Shown in pieces: positions 48,593 through 64,000 of a stretch of 64,000 nucleotides of DNA (positions within the stretch are counted from its first letter, which is position 1; the number at the start of each line of letters is the position of its first letter). Made by a program: the position numbers and the translations under genes. The DNA lies in assembly GCA_024614665.1 (NCBI GenBank), contig GCA_024614665.1_4861.1, one strand, 5' to 3'. The notes below the pieces were generated by a model, which saw only the letters and a list, made by a program, of their open reading frames with translations, was not told the origin of the DNA and searched no databases. The stretch comes from a phage.

Positions 48593-51500
48593 ATGGCAAA
48601 AAGAGGCAAAGACGGTTTCGATGATATCGACTTAGATAGACTCGATGACTGGGATGATTTCGGTGAACCACCCCGTCCCAAAGACGAGAAAAAACGAAGC
48701 CCGATACTTAGTACCCTGAATGTTGCCAGGAAGTCGGCGTTGTCAACTATCTGGCCAGAAGGGAAACGCGACCAAGTTATCCTCAAGGGGATGCCTAAGC
48801 CGGCAGCTGATGCATACGAGGGCTATCAGTCAGCGGCAGCTGCAGCAAAGGATATTTACGCCCATACGAAAGGGGAGCTTGAGAAGACCGAGCGCACGCT
48901 GAAGATGCAAGCGCGCCAACTCGGTCCGACGATGAAGAAATACTTGCCTGATGCGGTTACTAAGCGCATCGACAAGTGGTCAAAATCTGACCAGTTGGAT
49001 TACCAAAATTACGATCCTAATCAGGCGTTGATGGATCGTGAACTGGGCGACGTTTTCTCAGGTGTGCCAAAGGACGCCGAAGAACAACGTCAGCTGCAGG
49101 ACAGCATGGTAGAGGATAAGCTCCGCGACAGCATCAAAGAGATGCGTGCGGATGCAATGCACCAAACCATGATTGGGATGGCGAAAGACATTAACCTGCT
49201 AACCGGGTTAAGCCGCGGGGTATTCTTAAACATCGAGCGTAAGAAACTCGAACTGCAATACCGTACCCTGTTTGCCATCCAAGACATCGTGAAGATGAAG
49301 CAGTCGGAGTTCGATCGTAATACGCCTGCTTTAGAAGCCATCGTGAAGAACACGGCATTGCCGGATTACGCGAAGGAAGATTTCTCAGAAGTCCGTTGGG
49401 CGAACGTTAAACGCCAGGCTGCGGAATGGATGAACCCGTTGCGGTATGCTGACGGGTTTATGGACATGATTCGCGAAAATACCAAGAAGAAAATTTCTGG
49501 TATATTTGGCGAAGGTCGCGGTTTGTTAGAATCTGTTCTCGGCATGGGCGTTGAAGATGATTTCGGCATGAGCGACAGCTCTTCGTTGACTGCTGAACGT
49601 CGCAAAACAAATGCTCGCGATAAAGCAACTGCATGGGGTAGCGGATTCCTTGCGAAGAAACTACTCGGTCCACAAATCGAGAAACTCCAGAAATGGACTC
49701 GCGAGGAGATGGAGAAAAATCCAGAGGTCATGAAACGCCTGCAGAAGGGCGCGTTCACCTTTGGTAATCTTTCCTCCATCTCGAACTCAGCCATCGCAGG
49801 CGAAACGCAAGGACCGTTGGCGGATTTGTTCCGGGTGCTGAATGAACTCGGTATTGTCCAACCGTTAAACCGTGAGAAAGCCTTCCTTGACGAACGTAAT
49901 GGCGAAACGTTAAGCCGTTCGGCGAAATTTGACCGTAAAGCATATCTTAGCCTGGTTGAAGTTATTCCTGCCTGGCTGGCAGAGATTAACAAATCTGTTC
50001 GTCGGGGTTATGGCGAACATGCCGACCTGGAATACGACATCACTAGTCGTGGGTTCGTAGACCGTAAAGTGGTCGGTAACCGCGTACGCAAGGCGGTTGC
50101 AAACGATGAACAACGCCTGCGTCTCCAAAATTCCATTAACAGCACTGTGGATTTTGTTGACCGCGGCAAAACGCTCTCGCAGAAGGATCGACAGCATCTC
50201 GCCGACTATATCGAGTCGCGAGCCTCGCAGGGCCGCGCATTCGACGTAGAAGCGATTCTGAAAGACCCGATGCATCTTCATCGGTATATGCCAGGAAACT
50301 CCGCAGAACGCATTAAGGAAGCCTTACAGGGGCATTCTGATAGCCTAACCGGTGGTAGTAACGAATTAAGTAACGAACTGGCTCGTAAAATCTCCACAGT
50401 ACAATCGTCTATCACCCAGCGTCAGGCAGTTATTGACGAAGCGGTGAACATTTACGGCGAACGTGCGCTGCGTGATGCAGGTATATTCAACTACGACGCA
50501 AAGAGTGACACCTTCGGCGTAGATAAAGACCTCTCCGATCCCTACACCTTGTTTAATGACTTGGCGATGGGTAAGACACGCAGTGGTCGTGCACTGACTC
50601 GTGACCAGGAGATTCAACGTAAACTGCAAAACGGTTCAGCGTTAGGCGACTACTTGCGCCGGATGAACCAAGGGGCAAATGGTGGTGTCGATGACACGTC
50701 GTTGCCGCCGGCTTTACGTGGCGGTGGTAAAGGCCGCGGAATGTCGCCTCGGCAGTTAGCCGCAGTTCTCTACGGTGAAACCTCGACTAACTTTGTTGAA
50801 TTGTTGAGTCAACGTAACCGCGGCGAAGAAGCACCACGGAATAACTTTGACGGCATCATCGAAGCGATTCGGGGTAATAACAACAGTGACACCCTCCAGA
50901 AAATTCTGGAACACGTCAGAAGTATGGACGAAGAAGGGGTTCTCCTGGCTTCGTTAGCAGGGGGTGCTGGTTCTGGTGACGAAGAGATGGGACCACCTCG
51001 TCCTGGTGGTGGTAGCGGTGGCGGTAAACGCCGCCGTATTATCATCGGTGAGGATGGGCTTATTCGTCGTTGGGGCGGTGTGTTGTTCGACACTGCAGCA
51101 GGAATCGGTGGCTTTGCAAAACGTGGTGTTAAAGGTGCCTGGAATAAACTGAATCAGTTCGGTGGCTGGGCACGCGGTAAAATCGCAGGGATGGGCGGCG
51201 GAGAAGGTCCTGGTTTCTTAACCCGGATGCGTGGCCTTATCAGCGGTAGTGTCCGTGGGGGCTTTGAAGCGGTAAGTTCCTTCGGTAAAGGACTACTGGG
51301 TATCCGCGACATTTACGATGACCACGGTAATGTTGTTCTGCAAGGTGCACGTCTGGAAGCTGGAGAATACTACCAGGTCATTGATGGTAAAATGGTTCAG
51401 CTGAAAACGCTGGACGACATCAAACTGGGGAGTGATATTGTTGACTCCGCAGGTAATCTGGTATTAGCAGCCGCTGACTTAGCCGCTGCGGGTAAACTCC

Positions 51501-54500
51501 GCTACTATAAAGGCGGGAAAATCCAAGCACTGACCCAAGGTCTGGCCAGTAAGATTGGCTTAGGCTTTAATAAAGTGGCTAAGCTACCGAAACGGTTCCT
51601 GGATTTCCTGTCGCCAAAAGCGGGCAGCATCGTTGGTAAGATTAAGGACTGGCTGAACGAGATTCCGGAAGGCGAAGAAAAGACACGTCTCCAGAAAGCG
51701 TTCAACCGCGTAACGAGCTTACCGGGTAAAGTGCTCGGTTTTGCGAAACGTGGTGTCGACCGTCTGAAAGACATGATTACCGACAACCCACTGACGCGTT
51801 GGTGGAAAGGCCGTAAAGATGGTGGGGGAGGTGGTTTCAGTCTCTTCTCATCGACCGGCAAGAAAACCAACCACATTCTTATCCGTATCTACAAACTGTT
51901 GAACCAACGTTTACCGGGTGATCCGGAAGACGAAAGTTGGACAGAAGAAATGGAGAAGGGTGTCGGTGGCGGTGGTAGTACGATCGGCCGTGCAGTTCGC
52001 GGGGCGTATAATCGTGCGAAAGCGTCATTGTCTGAACGTTTTGGTGGACGTTGGTCAAGAACAAAAGCGTTCTTTGGTCGTGGACGTGACCGCCTGCGTG
52101 GTTGGTTCAGTGGTTTCCGAGGCCGGGCTGGGGATATGCTCGATGGATATCGTGGAGCACGACACGACATTGCTACACGTTACGAAGTTGAACGTCGGTT
52201 GGCTGGACGTGATGATGATGTTGCTGAGTTTTATCGCAGTCATTTGAACGCGAAAGGTGGCCTTTCTGGCCGTAAAGTCTACGGTGATGCGAAGGAAGAC
52301 CTTGAGACCGCCCGTGATGCAGCAGGGAGAGTTATTAACAAAGGGAAGAATGCTGCCAAGTCTGCAGGTGCAAGATTGTTTGAACGCTTGGACCGAATGA
52401 TTGGCTTGCAAGAGATGTCGTGGTTTAACACCATGCGCGAATCAGTATCCCGTGCAGGTGGTGACGATGGCATTATTCGTACCATGTTTGCGAAGTTCGG
52501 TAAACGTAACAAGCCGCCTGAAGGTGATGAAAAACGCGACTACTTTAACTTCTTCAAACGTTGGCGTGAGAAACGTAAGGAGAAGAAAGAGAAAGCGCAG
52601 GGCTCCAAAGGGAAATCTGGCGGTCTGTGGGATATGGTGAAAGGCTTACCTATCATCGGTCCCATCGTCAGTATCTTGGGAACTGTGGGTAATATACTCG
52701 GTTCTATCACGAAATGGGGTGTGTTAAAACCCGTAGGCCTTTTAGGGAAGGCTGCGTGGAATGTTGGTAAGTTCGCAGTAACCCGCTTGGCGGCACCCGC
52801 GGTGTCCGCTGTGGCAACTGCGGCATCTGCCGTCGTGACCGCGGTGGGTTGGCCGGCAATTCTCATCGGTGGTGCGATCGCCGCGGCAGGTTACGCCGCG
52901 TACAAAATCGCAACGACTACCTATACCCAGTACCTGGATAAGATGCGTTTAGCTCAGTACGGTTTCCGTGATTACGATAAGTGGTCGTCGGACGACGGGG
53001 CGAAAGCGCGTTACTTAGAAGACGCATTGCGTGAGTATGTGTCTTACGCGGAAGATGGCCAAGCCAGTCTCCGTGGGCTAAGTGGAAAAGACGTTCAGAA
53101 GTTAGCTGAAGGATTCGGTATCAACGTTGAGGAAAAAGGCGAGATGTTGGCCTTCCAAGCGTTTATGCTTCAGCGCTTCATTCCGATTTATCTCCGTTGG
53201 ATTACGGCACTGAAATCAATGCCGAACAGTATCCAGTTGGCTGACGTCGGCGATGCGAAGAAAGTATCGAAAGAGGACATGCAGACACTCTTCAACAAAA
53301 TGAAGATGACTAAGGATGCAAAAGCGTTCTCTTCGTTAACTGACCCACGCAAAGTCAACCAAGGTTTCTTCTCGAAAGCTTGGGACGTTGTAACCTTTAC
53401 ACCGAAGGAGTTTTTGAGCGGTGAAGAGGTTATGGAAGTGCAGAATGAAGTCGAGCGTGCGATCAAGTTCAGAATGGACGATAAGAAAGCACGTAAGTAC
53501 GGAATGGCACCGGCCGTGGAGGGGATTAAATCCGCTGGCGTTGATGAAGCTATCAACAAACTCGGACAGCTGGATAACGAACGTAACAAAAATCTGGCGA
53601 AGGTAGAAGGTTGGGAAGACGGAACAGAGCAGGTTCAGATTCAGGTAGACTGGAATGCGGTGCTCGACCAGAAAGACATGAATGCGATGGAGTCGGTACG
53701 TTGGAAGACTTATGGTTTTACCACCATCGATAACGCCACTCGCACCATGATCACGGTATTCGAGAAGAACGTCATTAAGGACATTGACGTGAAAACCGCA
53801 AGCTACAAAGGAGATTGGAAGAAAGCAATCGCCTCGATGGTTCCAGACGCTATCGGTACACCGAAAGAAGATCGTTTGAAACGGTGGTTCTTTGACCGTT
53901 TCTTACCGGTATTCATGACGTATTTGGTTGGGGTGAAGCGTTACCTGCCAACAGCCGATCCGCTGAACTTGAAACTGACCGGCGGCTACCTGTACGAAAT
54001 CAGTCTGATGATGTCAACAGCCTACAGCTTGAAAGGCGGTATAAGACAGTCGGTGTGGGAAGTGAATATCAACCCATTAGGGGGTGAGGCTAACACGAAC
54101 CCATCGTCCATCAAAGCCGAACTGGAAACGCTGAAGCTGCTGTCAAAAGAAGCTGACCTTGCCGTGCGTAACATGATCAAAGCCATTAAAAATAATGGCA
54201 AGCGTGCACGCTGGAAGGATCGTAACAAGAACCGCAGTTCTCTGGAAGTCACCGGTGAAGATGATGAAGACTCGAACATCAGTTCGGGAGATTCTTTGTC
54301 ATCCGACGGTGCTCGCGCCTCAGGTTATATCCCAACGGGTACAAGCGGTGGCGTACCGGGTAACTTAGGCCAAGTCGTCGATGCGGTTGGTGGTGTGCGG
54401 AACTACGCTGCAATGACCACGGGTTCGTCTTCGATTAACCTGAGTGATGTGAAAGACGGTGATTATAAGTCACTGGCTGAAAAATACCCGATAGAAATGT

Positions 54501-55714
54501 TGGGTAGAAAGGGTGCGTTGAACGTTCCAAATATCAAAGCACTGATTACCGATGCAGCGAACATGATGGGCGTGCCACCTGCAGTGGCGTTAGCAATGGC
54601 TAAGGCGGAGTCTGGATTTAACTACACCGCTAAAAACCCGTATGCTTCGGCGTCTGGGTTGTTCCAGTTTGTTAACGGTACGTGGGACGGGATGATGAAG
54701 GGGTATTCGCGGAAGTTCGGTATTCCGCGTGTTAACCAGATGGACCCGTGGGCGAATGCTATATTGGGTGTACAGTTCATTCGTGACAACATCCAACAAG
54801 CACAACGTGACCTGGGTGGTAAAGCACCACCTCCAGCCGTGGCTTATTTGTATCACTTCCTGGGTGCAGGCGGCGGTAAGAAATTCCTGGAAGCATGGAA
54901 GCGTAATCCGAATATGGCGGCATCAAGTGCTCCTGGGATTACATCTGCAATACTGAGAGGGAATGCCAACGTCTTCTACAGCAACGGTCGTATACGTAGC
55001 GTAGACGGGGTTATTCAGGAACTGAACCGCCGCATGGGCGCAATTTCCGCCAACGAAGTCGCTGCCGATCCGAGTAAGACGAAGGATATGGTTGCAGGCT
55101 TGTCGCCTAATTCACCAACCAACCCGGCAGCAGCAATGGGTGCACCGGCCGCTAATGATCCGAGTCTGTCGCCAGCAGATAACCTGCCGGCAGATAATGC
55201 TAATCGTCGTGATGACGCATTGACGCAGAAAGGGGCCATGGCGGCACAAGATGCAATGGCTACCGCCGCAGGTAATGTAGGACCAGCAGCACCTACACCA
55301 ACTACAGGTGGTTCCGGAACATCCGATGCCTCAACAACAGCCGAAACCGTAGCGTCGCAAGCTGCAGCAGAAGGATTGTCTGCAACGGATGTTGCTAAAG
55401 TGAAAGCAGGCGCGGAAGCGCAGGTTAACGCAGCAGCTCGTCCAGTTGCCGCTCCAACTTCTGATGCTACAGCATCGACGCCAACGCTGAATGGTGACCC
55501 GATAGATGTTCAGCAGCTCAAGGTACTGATTCAGTCTCGCGATTACTTGAAAGAGATTCGTGATATTTTGAAATCAAATCCGAGAGCAGCAAACGACACG
55601 CGTGGTGGTAGTATCCAGCAAGCGGCAAATGTGGCTCCTCCGGGCTCAGCTGCACGCAGGCAGGAAATAACCCAACCGACACCGTCGTTAAACGTAAGTC
55701 GGAAAGCAAGCTAA
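48593..55714 (+). CDS. giant virion-associated protein (2373 aa) with lytic transglycosylase domain
   Basis: SLT-type motif AMAKAESGFNYTAKNPYASASGLFQFVNGTWDGM at about 54560..54900; multiple Gly-rich linkers, Arg/Gly-rich segment, long hydrophobic segment, Ala/Pro/Thr-rich C-terminus; AGGAG-like RBS. Confidence 0.7.
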   Translation: MAKRGKDGFDDIDLDRLDDWDDFGEPPRPKDEKKRSPILSTLNVARKSALSTIWPEGKRDQVILKGMPKPAADAYEGYQSAAAAAKDIYAHTKGELEKTERTLKMQARQLGPTMKKYLPDAVTKRIDKWSKSDQLDYQNYDPNQALMDRELGDVFSGVPKDAEEQRQLQDSMVEDKLRDSIKEMRADAMHQTMIGMAKDINLLTGLSRGVFLNIERKKLELQYRTLFAIQDIVKMKQSEFDRNTPALEAIVKNTALPDYAKEDFSEVRWANVKRQAAEWMNPLRYADGFMDMIRENTKKKISGIFGEGRGLLESVLGMGVEDDFGMSDSSSLTAERRKTNARDKATAWGSGFLAKKLLGPQIEKLQKWTREEMEKNPEVMKRLQKGAFTFGNLSSISNSAIAGETQGPLADLFRVLNELGIVQPLNREKAFLDERNGETLSRSAKFDRKAYLSLVEVIPAWLAEINKSVRRGYGEHADLEYDITSRGFVDRKVVGNRVRKAVANDEQRLRLQNSINSTVDFVDRGKTLSQKDRQHLADYIESRASQGRAFDVEAILKDPMHLHRYMPGNSAERIKEALQGHSDSLTGGSNELSNELARKISTVQSSITQRQAVIDEAVNIYGERALRDAGIFNYDAKSDTFGVDKDLSDPYTLFNDLAMGKTRSGRALTRDQEIQRKLQNGSALGDYLRRMNQGANGGVDDTSLPPALRGGGKGRGMSPRQLAAVLYGETSTNFVELLSQRNRGEEAPRNNFDGIIEAIRGNNNSDTLQKILEHVRSMDEEGVLLASLAGGAGSGDEEMGPPRPGGGSGGGKRRRIIIGEDGLIRRWGGVLFDTAAGIGGFAKRGVKGAWNKLNQFGGWARGKIAGMGGGEGPGFLTRMRGLISGSVRGGFEAVSSFGKGLLGIRDIYDDHGNVVLQGARLEAGEYYQVIDGKMVQLKTLDDIKLGSDIVDSAGNLVLAAADLAAAGKLRYYKGGKIQALTQGLASKIGLGFNKVAKLPKRFLDFLSPKAGSIVGKIKDWLNEIPEGEEKTRLQKAFNRVTSLPGKVLGFAKRGVDRLKDMITDNPLTRWWKGRKDGGGGGFSLFSSTGKKTNHILIRIYKLLNQRLPGDPEDESWTEEMEKGVGGGGSTIGRAVRGAYNRAKASLSERFGGRWSRTKAFFGRGRDRLRGWFSGFRGRAGDMLDGYRGARHDIATRYEVERRLAGRDDDVAEFYRSHLNAKGGLSGRKVYGDAKEDLETARDAAGRVINKGKNAAKSAGARLFERLDRMIGLQEMSWFNTMRESVSRAGGDDGIIRTMFAKFGKRNKPPEGDEKRDYFNFFKRWREKRKEKKEKAQGSKGKSGGLWDMVKGLPIIGPIVSILGTVGNILGSITKWGVLKPVGLLGKAAWNVGKFAVTRLAAPAVSAVATAASAVVTAVGWPAILIGGAIAAAGYAAYKIATTTYTQYLDKMRLAQYGFRDYDKWSSDDGAKARYLEDALREYVSYAEDGQASLRGLSGKDVQKLAEGFGINVEEKGEMLAFQAFMLQRFIPIYLRWITALKSMPNSIQLADVGDAKKVSKEDMQTLFNKMKMTKDAKAFSSLTDPRKVNQGFFSKAWDVVTFTPKEFLSGEEVMEVQNEVERAIKFRMDDKKARKYGMAPAVEGIKSAGVDEAINKLGQLDNERNKNLAKVEGWEDGTEQVQIQVDWNAVLDQKDMNAMESVRWKTYGFTTIDNATRTMITVFEKNVIKDIDVKTASYKGDWKKAIASMVPDAIGTPKEDRLKRWFFDRFLPVFMTYLVGVKRYLPTADPLNLKLTGGYLYEISLMMSTAYSLKGGIRQSVWEVNINPLGGEANTNPSSIKAELETLKLLSKEADLAVRNMIKAIKNNGKRARWKDRNKNRSSLEVTGEDDEDSNISSGDSLSSDGARASGYIPTGTSGGVPGNLGQVVDAVGGVRNYAAMTTGSSSINLSDVKDGDYKSLAEKYPIEMLGRKGALNVPNIKALITDAANMMGVPPAVALAMAKAESGFNYTAKNPYASASGLFQFVNGTWDGMMKGYSRKFGIPRVNQMDPWANAILGVQFIRDNIQQAQRDLGGKAPPPAVAYLYHFLGAGGGKKFLEAWKRNPNMAASSAPGITSAILRGNANVFYSNGRIRSVDGVIQELNRRMGAISANEVAADPSKTKDMVAGLSPNSPTNPAAAMGAPAANDPSLSPADNLPADNANRRDDALTQKGAMAAQDAMATAAGNVGPAAPTPTTGGSGTSDASTTAETVASQAAAEGLSATDVAKVKAGAEAQVNAAARPVAAPTSDATASTPTLNGDPIDVQQLKVLIQSRDYLKEIRDILKSNPRAANDTRGGSIQQAANVAPPGSAARRQEITQPTPSLNVSRKAS

Positions 55715-58616: not shown

Positions 58617-59051
58617 GCGTTCGATAATCACTTTTACGATATCTTCTACCGGAGGGTAATACCACAACACCACACTGTTTCGTCCCAAGTCTTTTGGAAA
58701 CGTTTGGCAATATGCAATGTCGGTGCCGAAGCGCTCAGAGAGCTTTAAAACGTTCTCTGGGAACTGACAACCACCACGCCAGTCGTGCGTATAGAGTACC
58801 TGCTGTAATAATTTCACATTAGCATCGAAGAAGTACAGATTTTCTACCGGCGCAATGTGAGGTACCGGAATTGGTGTGTCGGTGAGTACGAACTCCAAAC
58901 CACCGCATTGTTCTGAACGCTCCGCTAGGAATTTCAGATGCCATGGCATTAGACCGTGGTCTTCCCAGACGATATTGTTGACCAGTAAACGATCAACGTA
59001 TTCGTCGTAATCAACCGTGAACAGTTTCTTCGCCATCGGTAAACGCCTCAT
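58614..59051 (-). CDS. hypothetical protein (145 aa)
   Basis: ORF track; start uncertain (overlaps upstream gene by 41 nt). Confidence 0.45.
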   Translation of the reverse strand: MRRLPMAKKLFTVDYDEYVDRLLVNNIVWEDHGLMPWHLKFLAERSEQCGGLEFVLTDTPIPVPHIAPVENLYFFDANVKLLQQVLYTHDWRGGCQFPENVLKLSERFGTDIAYCQTFPKDLGRNSVVLWYYPPVEDIVKVIIER

Positions 59052-59952
59052 CTTTTACAGTAAGGGAACCGTTTACTTCGATTTCAGCAGCAGTCATGTC
59101 TGCTTCTTTAACGAAGATACCGTCCGCGTTCAGGAAACCCTTACGGTCTTTGATTTCATCCCACGCCAAGGAGAAGCACTGTTCCAGAGTCATATCGTAC
59201 GCAATAGCCAGCGCATTGGCGTATTCGACCATCTGAGCGAAGTGACATTCGATCATTACCGCGTCGCTGTTCTCGAAGTGTTTATATTCGAGTTGCTTAG
59301 CTGAGTCGATGCCTGCCTGATCCCAGATATAATCAACCGCACAAGTAAGATGGAAACGCATTTTGTGGAACAGGTAATGACTGTTCCCGGCGTGTGGTTT
59401 CTTTGAACGTGCGTCGTTGACGTATGTGCTGATATCGGTTGAGTCAAACTTAATGAGTTCCATCAAGTTAACCAACACGACCAGAGCATCACCGATACCG
59501 TCCATGATGTAACGACGTTTGTTTTTACTGATACCGGTTGCCGCTTCACCGTCTTCTTCGTAGAGTTTGGTGGCTTGGCTATACCAGACGCCGTTATCCA
59601 GAATACCACGCGCTTTAGACCAACCCATAACGTTAGTAATACATTGTGGGATGGTGTACAAAGGTACGTAACGCGGACGATCAACCGTACCACGATACTC
59701 GACACCTTCCAACGTCCACGGCATTTCGAAATCATTTATTTCCAAACTCTGGTCGCCTGTGAATACTTTACCTTCGACGTAAGTGTGACCGGTTTCACTG
59801 TTCACGCACAGGGTGTACAGTTTCTCAAAGGACCACGGTTCAACAAACTGACGTTGGCAGAATCCAGCCAGAAGCTCATTAATCTGTGCCAGGTACTGGT
59901 TAGGTTCAACAATAACGTTATACGGAATCTGGATAATGAAACGGTCGCCCAT
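59011..59952 (-). CDS. hypothetical protein (313 aa) with possible MazG-like NTP pyrophosphohydrolase segment
   Basis: Weak motif resemblance only (KLYEEDGEAA ... IMDGIGDALVVLVNL resembles the EExGE / ELGD helices of MazG-type enzymes). Confidence 0.3.
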   Translation of the reverse strand: MGDRFIIQIPYNVIVEPNQYLAQINELLAGFCQRQFVEPWSFEKLYTLCVNSETGHTYVEGKVFTGDQSLEINDFEMPWTLEGVEYRGTVDRPRYVPLYTIPQCITNVMGWSKARGILDNGVWYSQATKLYEEDGEAATGISKNKRRYIMDGIGDALVVLVNLMELIKFDSTDISTYVNDARSKKPHAGNSHYLFHKMRFHLTCAVDYIWDQAGIDSAKQLEYKHFENSDAVMIECHFAQMVEYANALAIAYDMTLEQCFSLAWDEIKDRKGFLNADGIFVKEADMTAAEIEVNGSLTVKDEAFTDGEETVHG

Positions 59953-62272: not shown

Positions 62273-63310
62273 TTAGATAGCGACTGGTGCTTTAATTGGG
62301 TCGTGTGATACATAATCCCGGATCTCAAAATCTTCGAACTTATAATCGAAGATAGATTCCGGTTTACGCTTGATGACCAGTTTCGGTAAAGGTAAATGTT
62401 CGCGCGTCAGCTGCAGCTTGGCCTGCTCCAGATGGTTGGAGTACAGATGCACATCGCCGCCACTCCAAACGAAATCGCCCGGCACCATGTTAACTTGCTG
62501 TGCTACCATGTGTACGAGTAATGCGTAAGACGCGATGTTGAACGGTGTTCCCAGGAAGAAGTCTTGGGAACGTGCGTACAGTTGACATGAAAGAACGCGG
62601 CGAGGTATTTCAAGTGCGTCCATCTCAACGTGGAACACTGTGTCATCTGCTACAGCTTCATTACTAAAGCGGGAATCGTTAAATTGATCTGGAAGGTTCT
62701 TTTCAAACCAATCAAGACGCTCGTCGATAGACAGCTCACGAGTGTAGAACTGAAAGAACGCATGACACGGAGCTAACGCCATTTGATCCAACTCACCCAC
62801 GTTCCATGCGCTGACAATAATACGGCGACTGTCAGGATCGTTACGCAGCTGGTCAATCACCTTAGAGATCTGGTCGTGCTCTTTCAGAAGTACACGCGCA
62901 TCGAACATTTGTGAACCGTCGTCCGCGTCGCCATAATCCGCGTATCCAGCAGCTTGCAGTTTCTCGAGTAAAGCTGCATTTTTCTTAGGCACCAGTTTCA
63001 CATCTTTCCAACGTCTCCATTGTGCACCATACAGGGGTCCAAGGTTCCCATTCTCATCTTGCCACTCCCGCCAAATGGTAACGCCGTTATCTTCCAGATA
63101 TTTGGTGTTGGTATCACCACTAAGGAACCACAGCAATTCATGGATAATAGAACGCAGGTGGAGTTTCTTAGTCGTGACTAACGGGAAACCTTTACGCAAA
63201 TCAAAACGCATCTGGCGACCAAAGACAGAAAGCGTCCCCGTTCCAGTACGATCGCCTTTAACATGACCCTCGTCCAGAATGTTCTGCATCATCTCAAGAT
63301 ATTGTTTCAC
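62273..63310 (-). CDS. thyA: thymidylate synthase family protein (ThyA-like, about 345 aa with two insertions); could equally be a dUMP hydroxymethylase-type homologue
   Basis: [31 protein letters not shown] matches E. coli ThyA N-terminus [31 protein letters not shown] if translation starts at GTG 63310; active-site [12 protein letters not shown] and [30 protein letters not shown]-terminal KAPVAI conserved; two insertions of about 40-45 aa. Confidence 0.8.
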
Positions 63311-63312
63311 AA

Positions 63313-64000
63313 TTATTTTCCTTTCAATAAATTCAAAATGTCTCTTAAATCGTCGTTCGCACAAATGTTTACAGCGTTACCATCGAACTTAACATCAACA
63401 CGAGGGTTACGATTGAACAACATTTGTTTTCTTACTATCCACGGTTCAAAGTGCGCCTTGAGAAGCTCTTGCAGCTTTTCGTTCATAATGTCCTCCATCC
63501 GCAGCAATAGCTGCGGCATGGCGACTTCACCGTTATGTTTGGTTTGTAAATCATTCGATGTGGCCAAAAGGCAATTTACAATAATGTCGTGAACTGACTC
63601 GTTGGTTTTGTACACCGCCTGATAGGTTTGTTTCGCCAAATCGTTGTCGGGTAACGGCAACGTTGCTTTAAGCAGTTCGCCGAGCGTGCTTAATGTTTCG
63701 GGAGTCTTAACGAGCTTACGATGACCGTTAAAAACAACGCGGTCAAACTCCAGCCCGCAGCGACACGCTAACAATTGATACTGCCTCATCAACTTACGAA
63801 GCAGCGCGCTGTAACTCTTAGGGTCGTGTTCTGGTTCTCGCAAAACAACACTAACGGCCTCGACCGCAATTAACATGAGTTGCTGCAGCTGCCCTTCTTT
63901 CGTTCCAGTTGTAGTACGAACGGATAGCGCGTCACTCAGCGGAACGATAATATCGCCGAAGTTAGAATGTGGACCGAGGTGTAGCAGCGCGGCAAATGTC
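63313..64000 (-). CDS. hypothetical protein, 5'-partial (frame open to window end)
   Basis: ORF track starts it at ATG 63876, but the same minus-strand frame is open with no stop from 64000; stop at 63313..63315 is 3 nt upstream of the thyA GTG start. Confidence 0.45.

Follow-up and report, generated by a model that had tools for sequence, protein, structure and literature searches.

Near the end of a 64,000-nucleotide (nt) stretch of phage DNA (NCBI GenBank assembly GCA_024614665.1, contig GCA_024614665.1_4861.1; the whole stretch is called the window below), the minus strand carries a gene for thymidylate synthase (TS) at 62273..63310, which encodes 345 amino acids followed by a TAA stop and is identified by profile matches and DNA identity as the ortholog of SPN3US gp229. 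By megablast, the window belongs to a jumbo phage of Salmonella (genus Seoulvirus) that resembles SPN3US. At the DNA level the gene shares 97.7% identity with the one annotated 'thymidylate synthase' in Salmonella phage 1252 and ~95% with SPN3US_0229 (gp229). Records of SPN3US and its relatives already give this gene the label thymidylate synthase, and the enzyme assignment as such is routine. The evidence described below makes it very probable that the gene product is an ordinary ThyA-type TS which makes deoxythymidine monophosphate (dTMP), carries two non-catalytic surface modules, is translated from the GTG codon at 63310 and belongs to a nucleus-forming Seoulvirus jumbo phage.

The encoded protein matches Pfam PF00303 with 373.9 bits (E 4.6e-112, cut-off 24.3) and exceeds the cut-offs of three NCBIfam TS equivalog models, namely NF002499 (430.3 bits vs 405), NF002497 (407.2 bits vs 327) and TIGR03284 (355.6 bits vs 108), and its PHROG match is phrog_160, 'thymidylate synthase'. 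In a phmmer search of the PDB, E. coli ThyA was aligned in three colinear blocks, such that residues 1-102, 145-191 and 240-345 of the phage protein correspond to E. coli residues 1-102, 109-155 and 159-264, respectively. Within this core the identity to E. coli ThyA is 73-74%, with the same residue at 193 of the 264 E. coli positions, and the nearest ThyA proteins to the core are those of Enterobacterales (74-76%). An AlphaFold2 (AF2) model of the 345-residue protein (mean predicted local distance difference test score, or pLDDT, 77) found E. coli TS as its best match among solved structures (E 4e-34; template modelling, or TM, score 0.82, normalised by target length). Judged by its sequence, the protein belongs to the ThyA family, since every defining feature of the family that could be tested was found.

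The spaces between the three blocks are filled by two insertions. Insertion 1 (residues 103-144; 62879..63004, minus strand) lies in the loop at E. coli residues 100-110, which has been named the 'interface loop' (PMC4661567), and places 42 amino acids where E. coli ThyA has the six of PTPDGR (103-108), a net gain of 36. Insertion 2 (residues 192-239; 62594..62737, minus strand) lies at the tip of the hairpin at E. coli residues 155-158 and places 48 amino acids where E. coli ThyA has the three-residue DGK turn (156-158), a net gain of 45 in a hairpin that reads FFQFYVA-DGK-LSCQLYQRS in E. coli terms. An earlier note, made from the DNA letters alone, had described a ThyA-family enzyme with an intact core and two large insertions, and both parts of that description are borne out, the first by the profile scores and the retained catalytic residues, the second by the three-block alignment and by the recurrence of both insertions in dozens of phage genes. 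Because of the PF00303 score and this recurrence, the insertions are not a product of chance. The same note had placed the insertions behind the WxEW and FFQFY segments; insertion 1, however, starts ~19 residues past WREW (residues 80-83), after YGAQWRRW.

The longest minus-strand open reading frame (ORF) that contains the gene runs over 62273..63364 and spans 363 residues. It had been said to start with ATG, but the codon at 63364 is TTG; the 52-nt overlap that it would have with the upstream gene (63313-63364) was read correctly, and the proposal that the true start is the GTG at 63308..63310 (minus strand) is well founded. Translation from this GTG yields an MKQYLE N-terminus whose residue 1 matches Met1 of E. 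coli ThyA, a Shine-Dalgarno-like AGGA (63319..63322, minus strand) stands 8 nt 5' of the codon (direct read: gaaAGGAaaataattGTG), and the upstream gene, a gp228 homolog which extends past the end of the window, stops with a TAA at 63313-63315, leaving a gap of 2 nt before the GTG. Of 16 other phage loci checked, 15 have ATG at the codon aligned to this GTG, most of the 16 have in-frame stops 0-18 codons upstream without an alternative start, and the records of SEGD1, SPFM4, SPLA3 and EC001 all annotate TS from the aligned position. Use of the TTG at 63364, which would add an 18-residue N-terminal extension (MCERRFKRH...), has in its favour that it gives the longest ORF, but it is barely credible: no Shine-Dalgarno sequence precedes that codon, the coding region would share 52 nt with the upstream gene, the relatives just described lack the extension or could not encode it, and E. 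coli ThyA begins at the aligned Met. In SPLA3, moreover, TS begins with ATG and 930 bp separate it from the stretch that matches the 18-codon extension. The segment at 63311..63364 (minus strand) is a spurious 5' extension, formed by the 3' end of the gp228 homolog read in another frame. The start of TS is therefore mis-set in some records, since the SPN3US record (NC_027402 / JN641803, position 197633; L001 6076) begins the gene at Met8, giving 338 residues and a start 7 codons late, and the longest-ORF reading of the window begins it 18 codons early.

The 930-bp insertion of SPLA3 (L002 ~1565-2483; window position 63311/63312) is an observation in its own right, as it occupies precisely the point where 2 nt part the stop of the upstream gene from the first codon of TS. 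Within it lies a 255-residue ORF annotated 'restriction endonuclease', for which a Pfam search gave no match. The insertion looks like a free-standing mobile element of the homing-endonuclease type beside the TS gene, and such an element could drive local gene conversion.

The residues on which TS catalysis depends are all in place. The catalytic network (C182, H183, E58, Y94, D250, H288 and Y290, of which the last three are E. coli D169, H207 and Y209) is kept and is invariant in 33 relatives, as is the set that binds the phosphate of deoxyuridine monophosphate (dUMP), namely R21, R162/R163 (E. coli 126/127), R247 and S248 (E. coli 166 and 167). The nucleophile Cys182 (E. coli C146; codon 62765..62767, minus strand) stands in a PCH motif, is followed by His183 (E. 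coli H147) and is invariant in two homolog alignments. Asn258 (E. coli N177; codon 62537..62539, minus strand), the determinant of uracil over cytosine (PMC8670742), lies in PFNIASY and is likewise invariant among the relatives. Residues involved in folate binding and hydride transfer, W80, W83, L179 (E. coli L143) and F257 (E. coli F176), are retained, IWREW is conserved, and the DRTGTGT, PCH and WREW motifs are all found in the protein. The C-terminus reads IKAPVAI in the window protein and most relatives, and ISAPVAI in SPN3US and three close relatives. From these residues the protein is predicted to be a TS that methylates dUMP in a normal active site.

Phage homologs of TS are sometimes hydroxymethylases, and the earlier note had raised the idea that this one is a pyrimidine hydroxymethylase feeding DNA modification. 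Such a protein would be a hydroxymethylase of dUMP or deoxycytidine monophosphate (dCMP), or a dCMP methylase, that serves a modified phage DNA, with the insertions letting water replace hydride transfer. The characterised SPO1-type enzymes are indeed longer than TS (382-407 residues; PMC4528723), and a weakly MazG-like gene lies ~2.3 kb downstream, such pyrophosphatases being able to accompany base replacement (PMC7824862). However, the positions that discriminate dUMP from dCMP enzymes, E. coli 177 (Asn for dUMP, Asp for dCMP) and 147 (PMC8670742), are occupied here by Asn258 and His183, both of which are TS states, and conservation extends to W80, W83, Y94, L179, F257 and the C-terminal PVAI. 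When the protein was aligned to both the TS and the hydroxymethylase families and the discriminating residues were compared, as the earlier note had suggested, TS states were found throughout. The 73-74% core identity to E. coli ThyA and the three equivalog matches contrast with 19% identity (E 3e-4) to SPO1 gp29, and the insertion loops are distant in sequence from the catalytic residues. TS oxidises its folate and for this reason needs dihydrofolate reductase (DHFR), which a dUMP hydroxymethylase does not (PMC4528723); this phage group is reported to encode DHFR, and a review describes DNA modification as uncommon in Chimalliviridae. A sample of 40 rows, out of 720 phage records matching SPO1 gp29, contained relatives from Bacillus, ViI-like, M6-like and PhiW-14-type phages and no Seoulvirus. 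Taken together, these points make a hydroxymethylase or dCMP methylase very unlikely, and the DNA-modification idea can be dropped for this gene.

Both characterised types of hydroxymethylase were considered as candidates and rejected: a gp42-type dCMP enzyme because the protein has Asn258 rather than Asp and because Acj9 gp42 ranks 38th in the viral fold search (TMq 0.41, 12% identity), and a gp29-type dUMP enzyme because every motif compared (PCH, DRTGTGT, WxEW and the C-terminus) is in the TS state and the identity is 19%. The MazG-like gene mentioned above is a 313-residue ORF at 59011-59952 (minus strand, in the orientation of TS), the counterpart of the SPN3US 'mazG nucleotide pyrophosphohydrolase', whose Pfam MazG match of 17.7 bits is under the cut-off of 22.

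The phage group appears to encode the steps that flank TS in thymidylate synthesis, as DHFR, TS and dTMP kinase have been reported in all SPFM (Seoulvirus) genomes (PMC6614189). A single ThyA-type match was found by tblastn per SPN3US-like phage, for example at one place in phage 1252. SPN3US gp100 has been called a predicted thymidylate synthase (PMC5694885), but as a second TS of SPN3US it was rejected, the GenBank record annotating SPN3US_0100 (L084 9525-10148) as thymidylate kinase. In the proposed mechanism Cys182 would attack C6 of dUMP, the methylene group of 5,10-methylenetetrahydrofolate would move to C5, and transfer of a hydride from the cofactor would give dTMP and dihydrofolate; these reaction steps are established TS chemistry. 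A phage-encoded DHFR would then regenerate the folate, and dTMP would pass to a dTMP kinase of the phage (gp100 in SPN3US), so as to supply thymidylate for replication of the 240-kb genome. The enzyme would work in the cytoplasm outside the phage nucleus, by analogy with its PhiPA3 ortholog, for which a fusion of TS ('TMS') to green fluorescent protein was reported to be excluded from the nucleus; antisense knock-down of phiKZ TS, gp235, was reported to reduce plaquing weakly. Elsewhere in the window, on the strand opposite to the TS gene block, lies a very large ORF of 2373 residues (48593-55714, plus strand), followed by one of 753 residues.

Since the core looks like that of a normal TS, the features that distinguish this protein are its two insertions. 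The AF2 model folds insertion 1 as strand-helix-strand-strand (strand 101-108, helix 112-120, strands 124-130 and 137-145; pLDDT ~70-88) and insertion 2 as bundled short helices (195-205, 207-212, 217-221 and 223-232; pLDDT ~70-92) on a slightly lengthened hairpin. In the AF2 model of a relative, P0029, insertion 1 has the same strand-helix-strand-strand elements, and insertion 2 has the same predicted fold class though this cassette is 14% identical and 8 residues longer. Across 117 diverse sequences insertion 2 is framed by the motif T-R-E-L-T-x-x-E(78%)-R(88%)...[VI]-P(93%)-x-R, has a median net length of 43 residues (range 22-92) and carries a negative net charge in 81% of cases, and in insertion 1 residue G122 is invariant in the 33 relatives. 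Insertion 1 would accordingly be pictured as an alpha/beta surface module in the E. coli 100-110 loop, and insertion 2 as an acidic surface module made of helices, carried by a lengthened beta-hairpin that belongs to the central sheet. Neither is a recognised domain: the TS domain was the sole Pfam match of the full-length protein, NCBIfam gave no match to the two insertion peptides searched alone, and sequence and fold searches of the PDB revealed no solved TS structure that covers either insertion.

The insertions are widely shared among related phages. Both occur in every aligned homolog at 64-97% identity; these homologs have 336-353 residues, apart from the shorter fragments P0031 and P0032, and most are on contigs of 220-245 kb, including those of Erwinia phages Wellington and pEa_SNUABM_38. 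Loss of either insertion was not seen among the 19 closest viral loci and 32 aligned homologs of the SPN3US-like family. Beyond that family, the TS of the phiKZ-like phage PhiPizzaParty (488 residues; L167 601-2064) carries both insertions with the same frame motifs and the best viral fold match is the TS of 201phi2-1 (B3FJL1; TMq 0.82); therefore, the modules are common to nucleus-forming jumbo phages. Both would have been inherited across these phages as fast-evolving elements that recombine independently of the catalytic core.

Insertion 2 has a still wider distribution. An insertion at its hairpin is present in about two thirds of the best 150 representatives from a library clustered at 50% identity, a proportion which is not a true frequency, as the search profile contained insertion columns and enriched carriers of insertion 2. 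Among one-per-species bacterial genomes, the best 80 ThyA genes among the matches listed (drawn from 600 candidate stretches) are all 777-831 nt long and are without an insert of this type, and in a direct count insertion 2 was found in 0 of 79 bacterial ThyA, again the best matches listed, vs 30 of 80 viral loci. When its presence or absence is mapped on a rough neighbour-joining tree built from core positions alone, 23 changes are required vs ~92 after shuffling, so insertion 2 is phylogenetically coherent without being strictly monophyletic. It thus marks a large and apparently phage-restricted group of phage and metagenomic TS. No paper that describes the conserved insertion architecture or its phage-restricted distribution was found in open-access text.

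Two further observations concern this wider group. Several metagenomic TS of 476-588 residues (P0123, P0133, P0138, P0159 and P0194) contain up to ~300 extra residues and match Pfam in the TS domain only, and the TS of phages seems to serve as a framework for large inserted segments of an uncharacterised kind. In another TS, on a viral contig (L054 4001-4792), an in-frame stop stands at the Ser of the conserved L-S-C-Q-L-Y-Q-R-S strand, which may mean that the gene is a pseudogene, that the stop is recoded or that the sequence contains an error.

Comparison of individual alleles points to modular exchange. In the EC001-type alleles (P0021, P0022 and P0024) the cores are 92-100% and insertion 1 is 90-92% identical to the window, whereas insertion 2 is 31-33% identical to the window and 89-91% identical to that of a distantly related 241-kb phage (L010) whose core is 71-91% identical to theirs. 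P0029, in turn, combines a window-like insertion 1 (76%) with an insertion 2 of the type found in L014. Identity between insertion cassettes can be as low as 13-33% while cores remain 70-100% identical. On these comparisons, neither insertion is tied to the other or to the core when it is exchanged, and their independent swaps argue against a tight mutual contact. Escherichia phage EC001 (L170) itself is a case in which insertion 2 alone was replaced by an L010-type cassette.

The core also carries marks of exchange, on a finer scale. Among five close relatives (the window, SPN3US, SPLA3, SEGD1 and SPFM4) the ratio of nonsynonymous to synonymous substitution rates in the insertions was uninformative, as the insertion DNA is nearly identical, and the analysis exposed a patchy mosaic in the core. 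Hyper-divergent core patches, each of 30-80 nt with up to 17 of 30 nt different, were found at codons 68-93, 243-255, 281-291 and 331-340, in combinations that differ between the five alleles. Patch A (codons 68-93; 63032..63109, minus strand) is an alternative allele in SPLA3 and SEGD1, with 8-14 differences per 30 nt vs 0-1 in its flanks; the patch at codons 243-255 occupies 62546-62584 (minus strand); and in patch D (codons 331-340; 62291..62320, minus strand) 17 of 30 nt differ from SPN3US, SPLA3, SEGD1 and SPFM4, all of which encode VGYQSHEKIS. The allele comparison thus identifies the TS gene as a fine-scale gene-conversion mosaic. Codons 89 and 92 of the SPFM phage TS have been reported as positively selected (PMC6614189). 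Because both codons (N89A and P92E; codons 89-93 are 63032-63046) fall within patch A, this signal is probably a recombination artefact.

An 89.7-kb IMG/VR contig (L025 4001-4954) encodes a 318-residue TS that has insertion 2 only and a core whose closest relative, at 79%, is Pseudomonas ThyA. Because the cores that carry insertion 2 resemble Enterobacterales (the window) or Pseudomonas (this contig), either insertion 2 spreads among host-derived cores, or the module stays in place as conversion makes the cores more like host thyA.

What the insertions do must be weighed against these patterns. Our preferred reading is that they leave the chemistry unchanged and would serve as surfaces, specific to the phage, through which the enzyme makes contacts (for example with other enzymes of nucleotide synthesis) or its dimer is stabilised. 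Their retention suggests a benefit to the phage, and of the possible benefits interaction or dimer-stabilising surfaces seem the most plausible. A more specific version holds that the modules are docking surfaces for a cytoplasmic complex of deoxynucleoside triphosphate synthesis, or serve in conflict with the host, and that selection keeps and shuffles them while the core is replaced or converted. This proposal is put forward because of the cassette swaps, the Enterobacterales- and Pseudomonas-like cores and the absence of the modules from the bacterial ThyA sampled, and we regard it as speculative and on the whole doubtful. If the modules prove to be surfaces for interaction, they would provide a way to study how nucleotide supply in the cytoplasm is organised by nucleus-forming phages.

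The main alternative on this point, possible though rather unlikely, is that the protein is a normal TS whose insertions are neutral loop expansions at permissive sites, persisting by inheritance and recombination only. The low identity between cassettes on similar cores, the 22-92-residue spread of insertion 2 lengths and the metagenomic TS with their ~300 extra residues outside any Pfam domain are all what such a process might leave behind, and human TS is known to carry insertions in the regions of E. coli 69-88 and 100-110 (PMC4661567, PMC5929524). On the other hand, both insertions have been kept from SPN3US-type to phiKZ-type phages with cores ~50% identical, and neither was lost in the loci and homologs surveyed above. 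The frame residues of insertion 2 (E 78%, R 88%, P 93%) and G122 of insertion 1 are conserved, and the predicted fold class survives between cassettes that are 14% identical. The absence of insertion 2 from all 79 of the best-matching bacterial ThyA listed, together with its retention on cores that resemble different host lineages, likewise counts against neutral persistence.

TS genes are classic targets of mobile genetic elements, and the insertions could in principle be remnants of mini-inteins, read-through introns or homing endonucleases. T-even td genes carry introns or homing endonucleases, SPLA3 has its endonuclease-annotated ORF exactly at the TS start, and the gene is a gene-conversion mosaic. 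The insertions themselves, however, have none of the corresponding properties. At 42 and 48 residues they are far smaller than an intein (at least ~130 residues), and at 126 and 144 nt they are shorter than a group I intron (>200 nt); there is no Cys, Ser or Thr at the N-terminal junction and no His-Asn followed by Cys, Ser or Thr at the C-terminal one, insertion 2 ending in IPRRV|LSC. In addition, the reading frame is kept, with in-frame indels only, down to ~50% core identity, the insertions are predicted to fold confidently, and the element in SPLA3 does not interrupt the coding sequence of TS. An intein or intron origin was ruled out on size, junction residues and conserved reading frame, and mobile-element debris of any of these kinds is exceedingly improbable.

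Several points weigh against an ordinary TS with functional surface modules. The AF2 models are monomeric and of moderate quality (the mean pLDDT of 77 given above), with low confidence near the catalytic loop at 167-182. The poor conservation of sequence within the insertions would be expected just as well under weak constraint. A tblastn search of the 64-kb window found no FolA-like DHFR gene, and the presence of this enzyme in the genome rests on the paper about close relatives cited above; no conserved neighbouring gene was identified. The enrichment of insertion 2 carriers by the search profile and the restriction of the bacterial ThyA counts to best matches, both noted above, count on the same side. 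The assignment to TS with a GTG start and two added modules nevertheless stays very probable.

Comparison with known enzymes of the same fold helps to place the protein. SPO1 gp29 and T4 gp42 belong to the same fold superfamily and are also folate-dependent enzymes that modify pyrimidines at C5, but both lack DRTGTGT, WxEW, PCH and the PVAI tail. gp29, at 19% identity, has PCN for PCH and a long unrelated C-terminus, and gp42-type enzymes (12% identity for Acj9 gp42) have, according to the literature, Asp at E. coli position 177. T4-type td resembles the window gene as a phage ThyA with small lineage-specific insertions that works with a phage DHFR (frd adjoins td), yet it is ~36% identical and its extra residues lie near E. 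coli 72, 86 and 240, with none at the sites of insertions 1 and 2. For this reason T4 td was rejected as a precedent for the same insertion sites.

Cellular TS also show that the fold accepts added segments. L. casei TS, with 316 residues in the phmmer search of the PDB, has an insert of ~50 residues in its small domain. We know of no characterised cellular TS with an insertion at the hairpin of E. coli residues 155-158, and searches of the PDB found no TS with an insertion there. Human TS tolerates inserts of 12 residues at E. coli 69-88 and 8 residues at 100-110 with its chemistry unchanged (PMC5929524, PMC4661567); its interface-loop insert is smaller than insertion 1 and unrelated in sequence.

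The nearest parallels to the insertions themselves are the TS of other chimalliviruses (201phi2-1 B3FJL1, phiKZ gp235, PhiPizzaParty and the PhiPA3 'TMS'), which share both insertion sites, a G[FY] in insertion 1 and TRELTxxER...PxR in insertion 2. The phiKZ-type enzymes differ in that their cores are ~50% identical to the window, their length is 457-488 residues and they carry a third insertion of ~125 residues near E. coli residue 86. With the ThyA of E. coli and other Enterobacterales (EC 2.1.1.45; PDB 2TSC and 1TYS), the window protein shares 73-76% identity over 264 core positions, the same termini and all catalytic, dUMP-binding and folate-binding residues, whereas E. coli ThyA has neither insertion, its six residues of PTPDGR and three of DGK standing opposite 42 and 48 in the phage enzyme.

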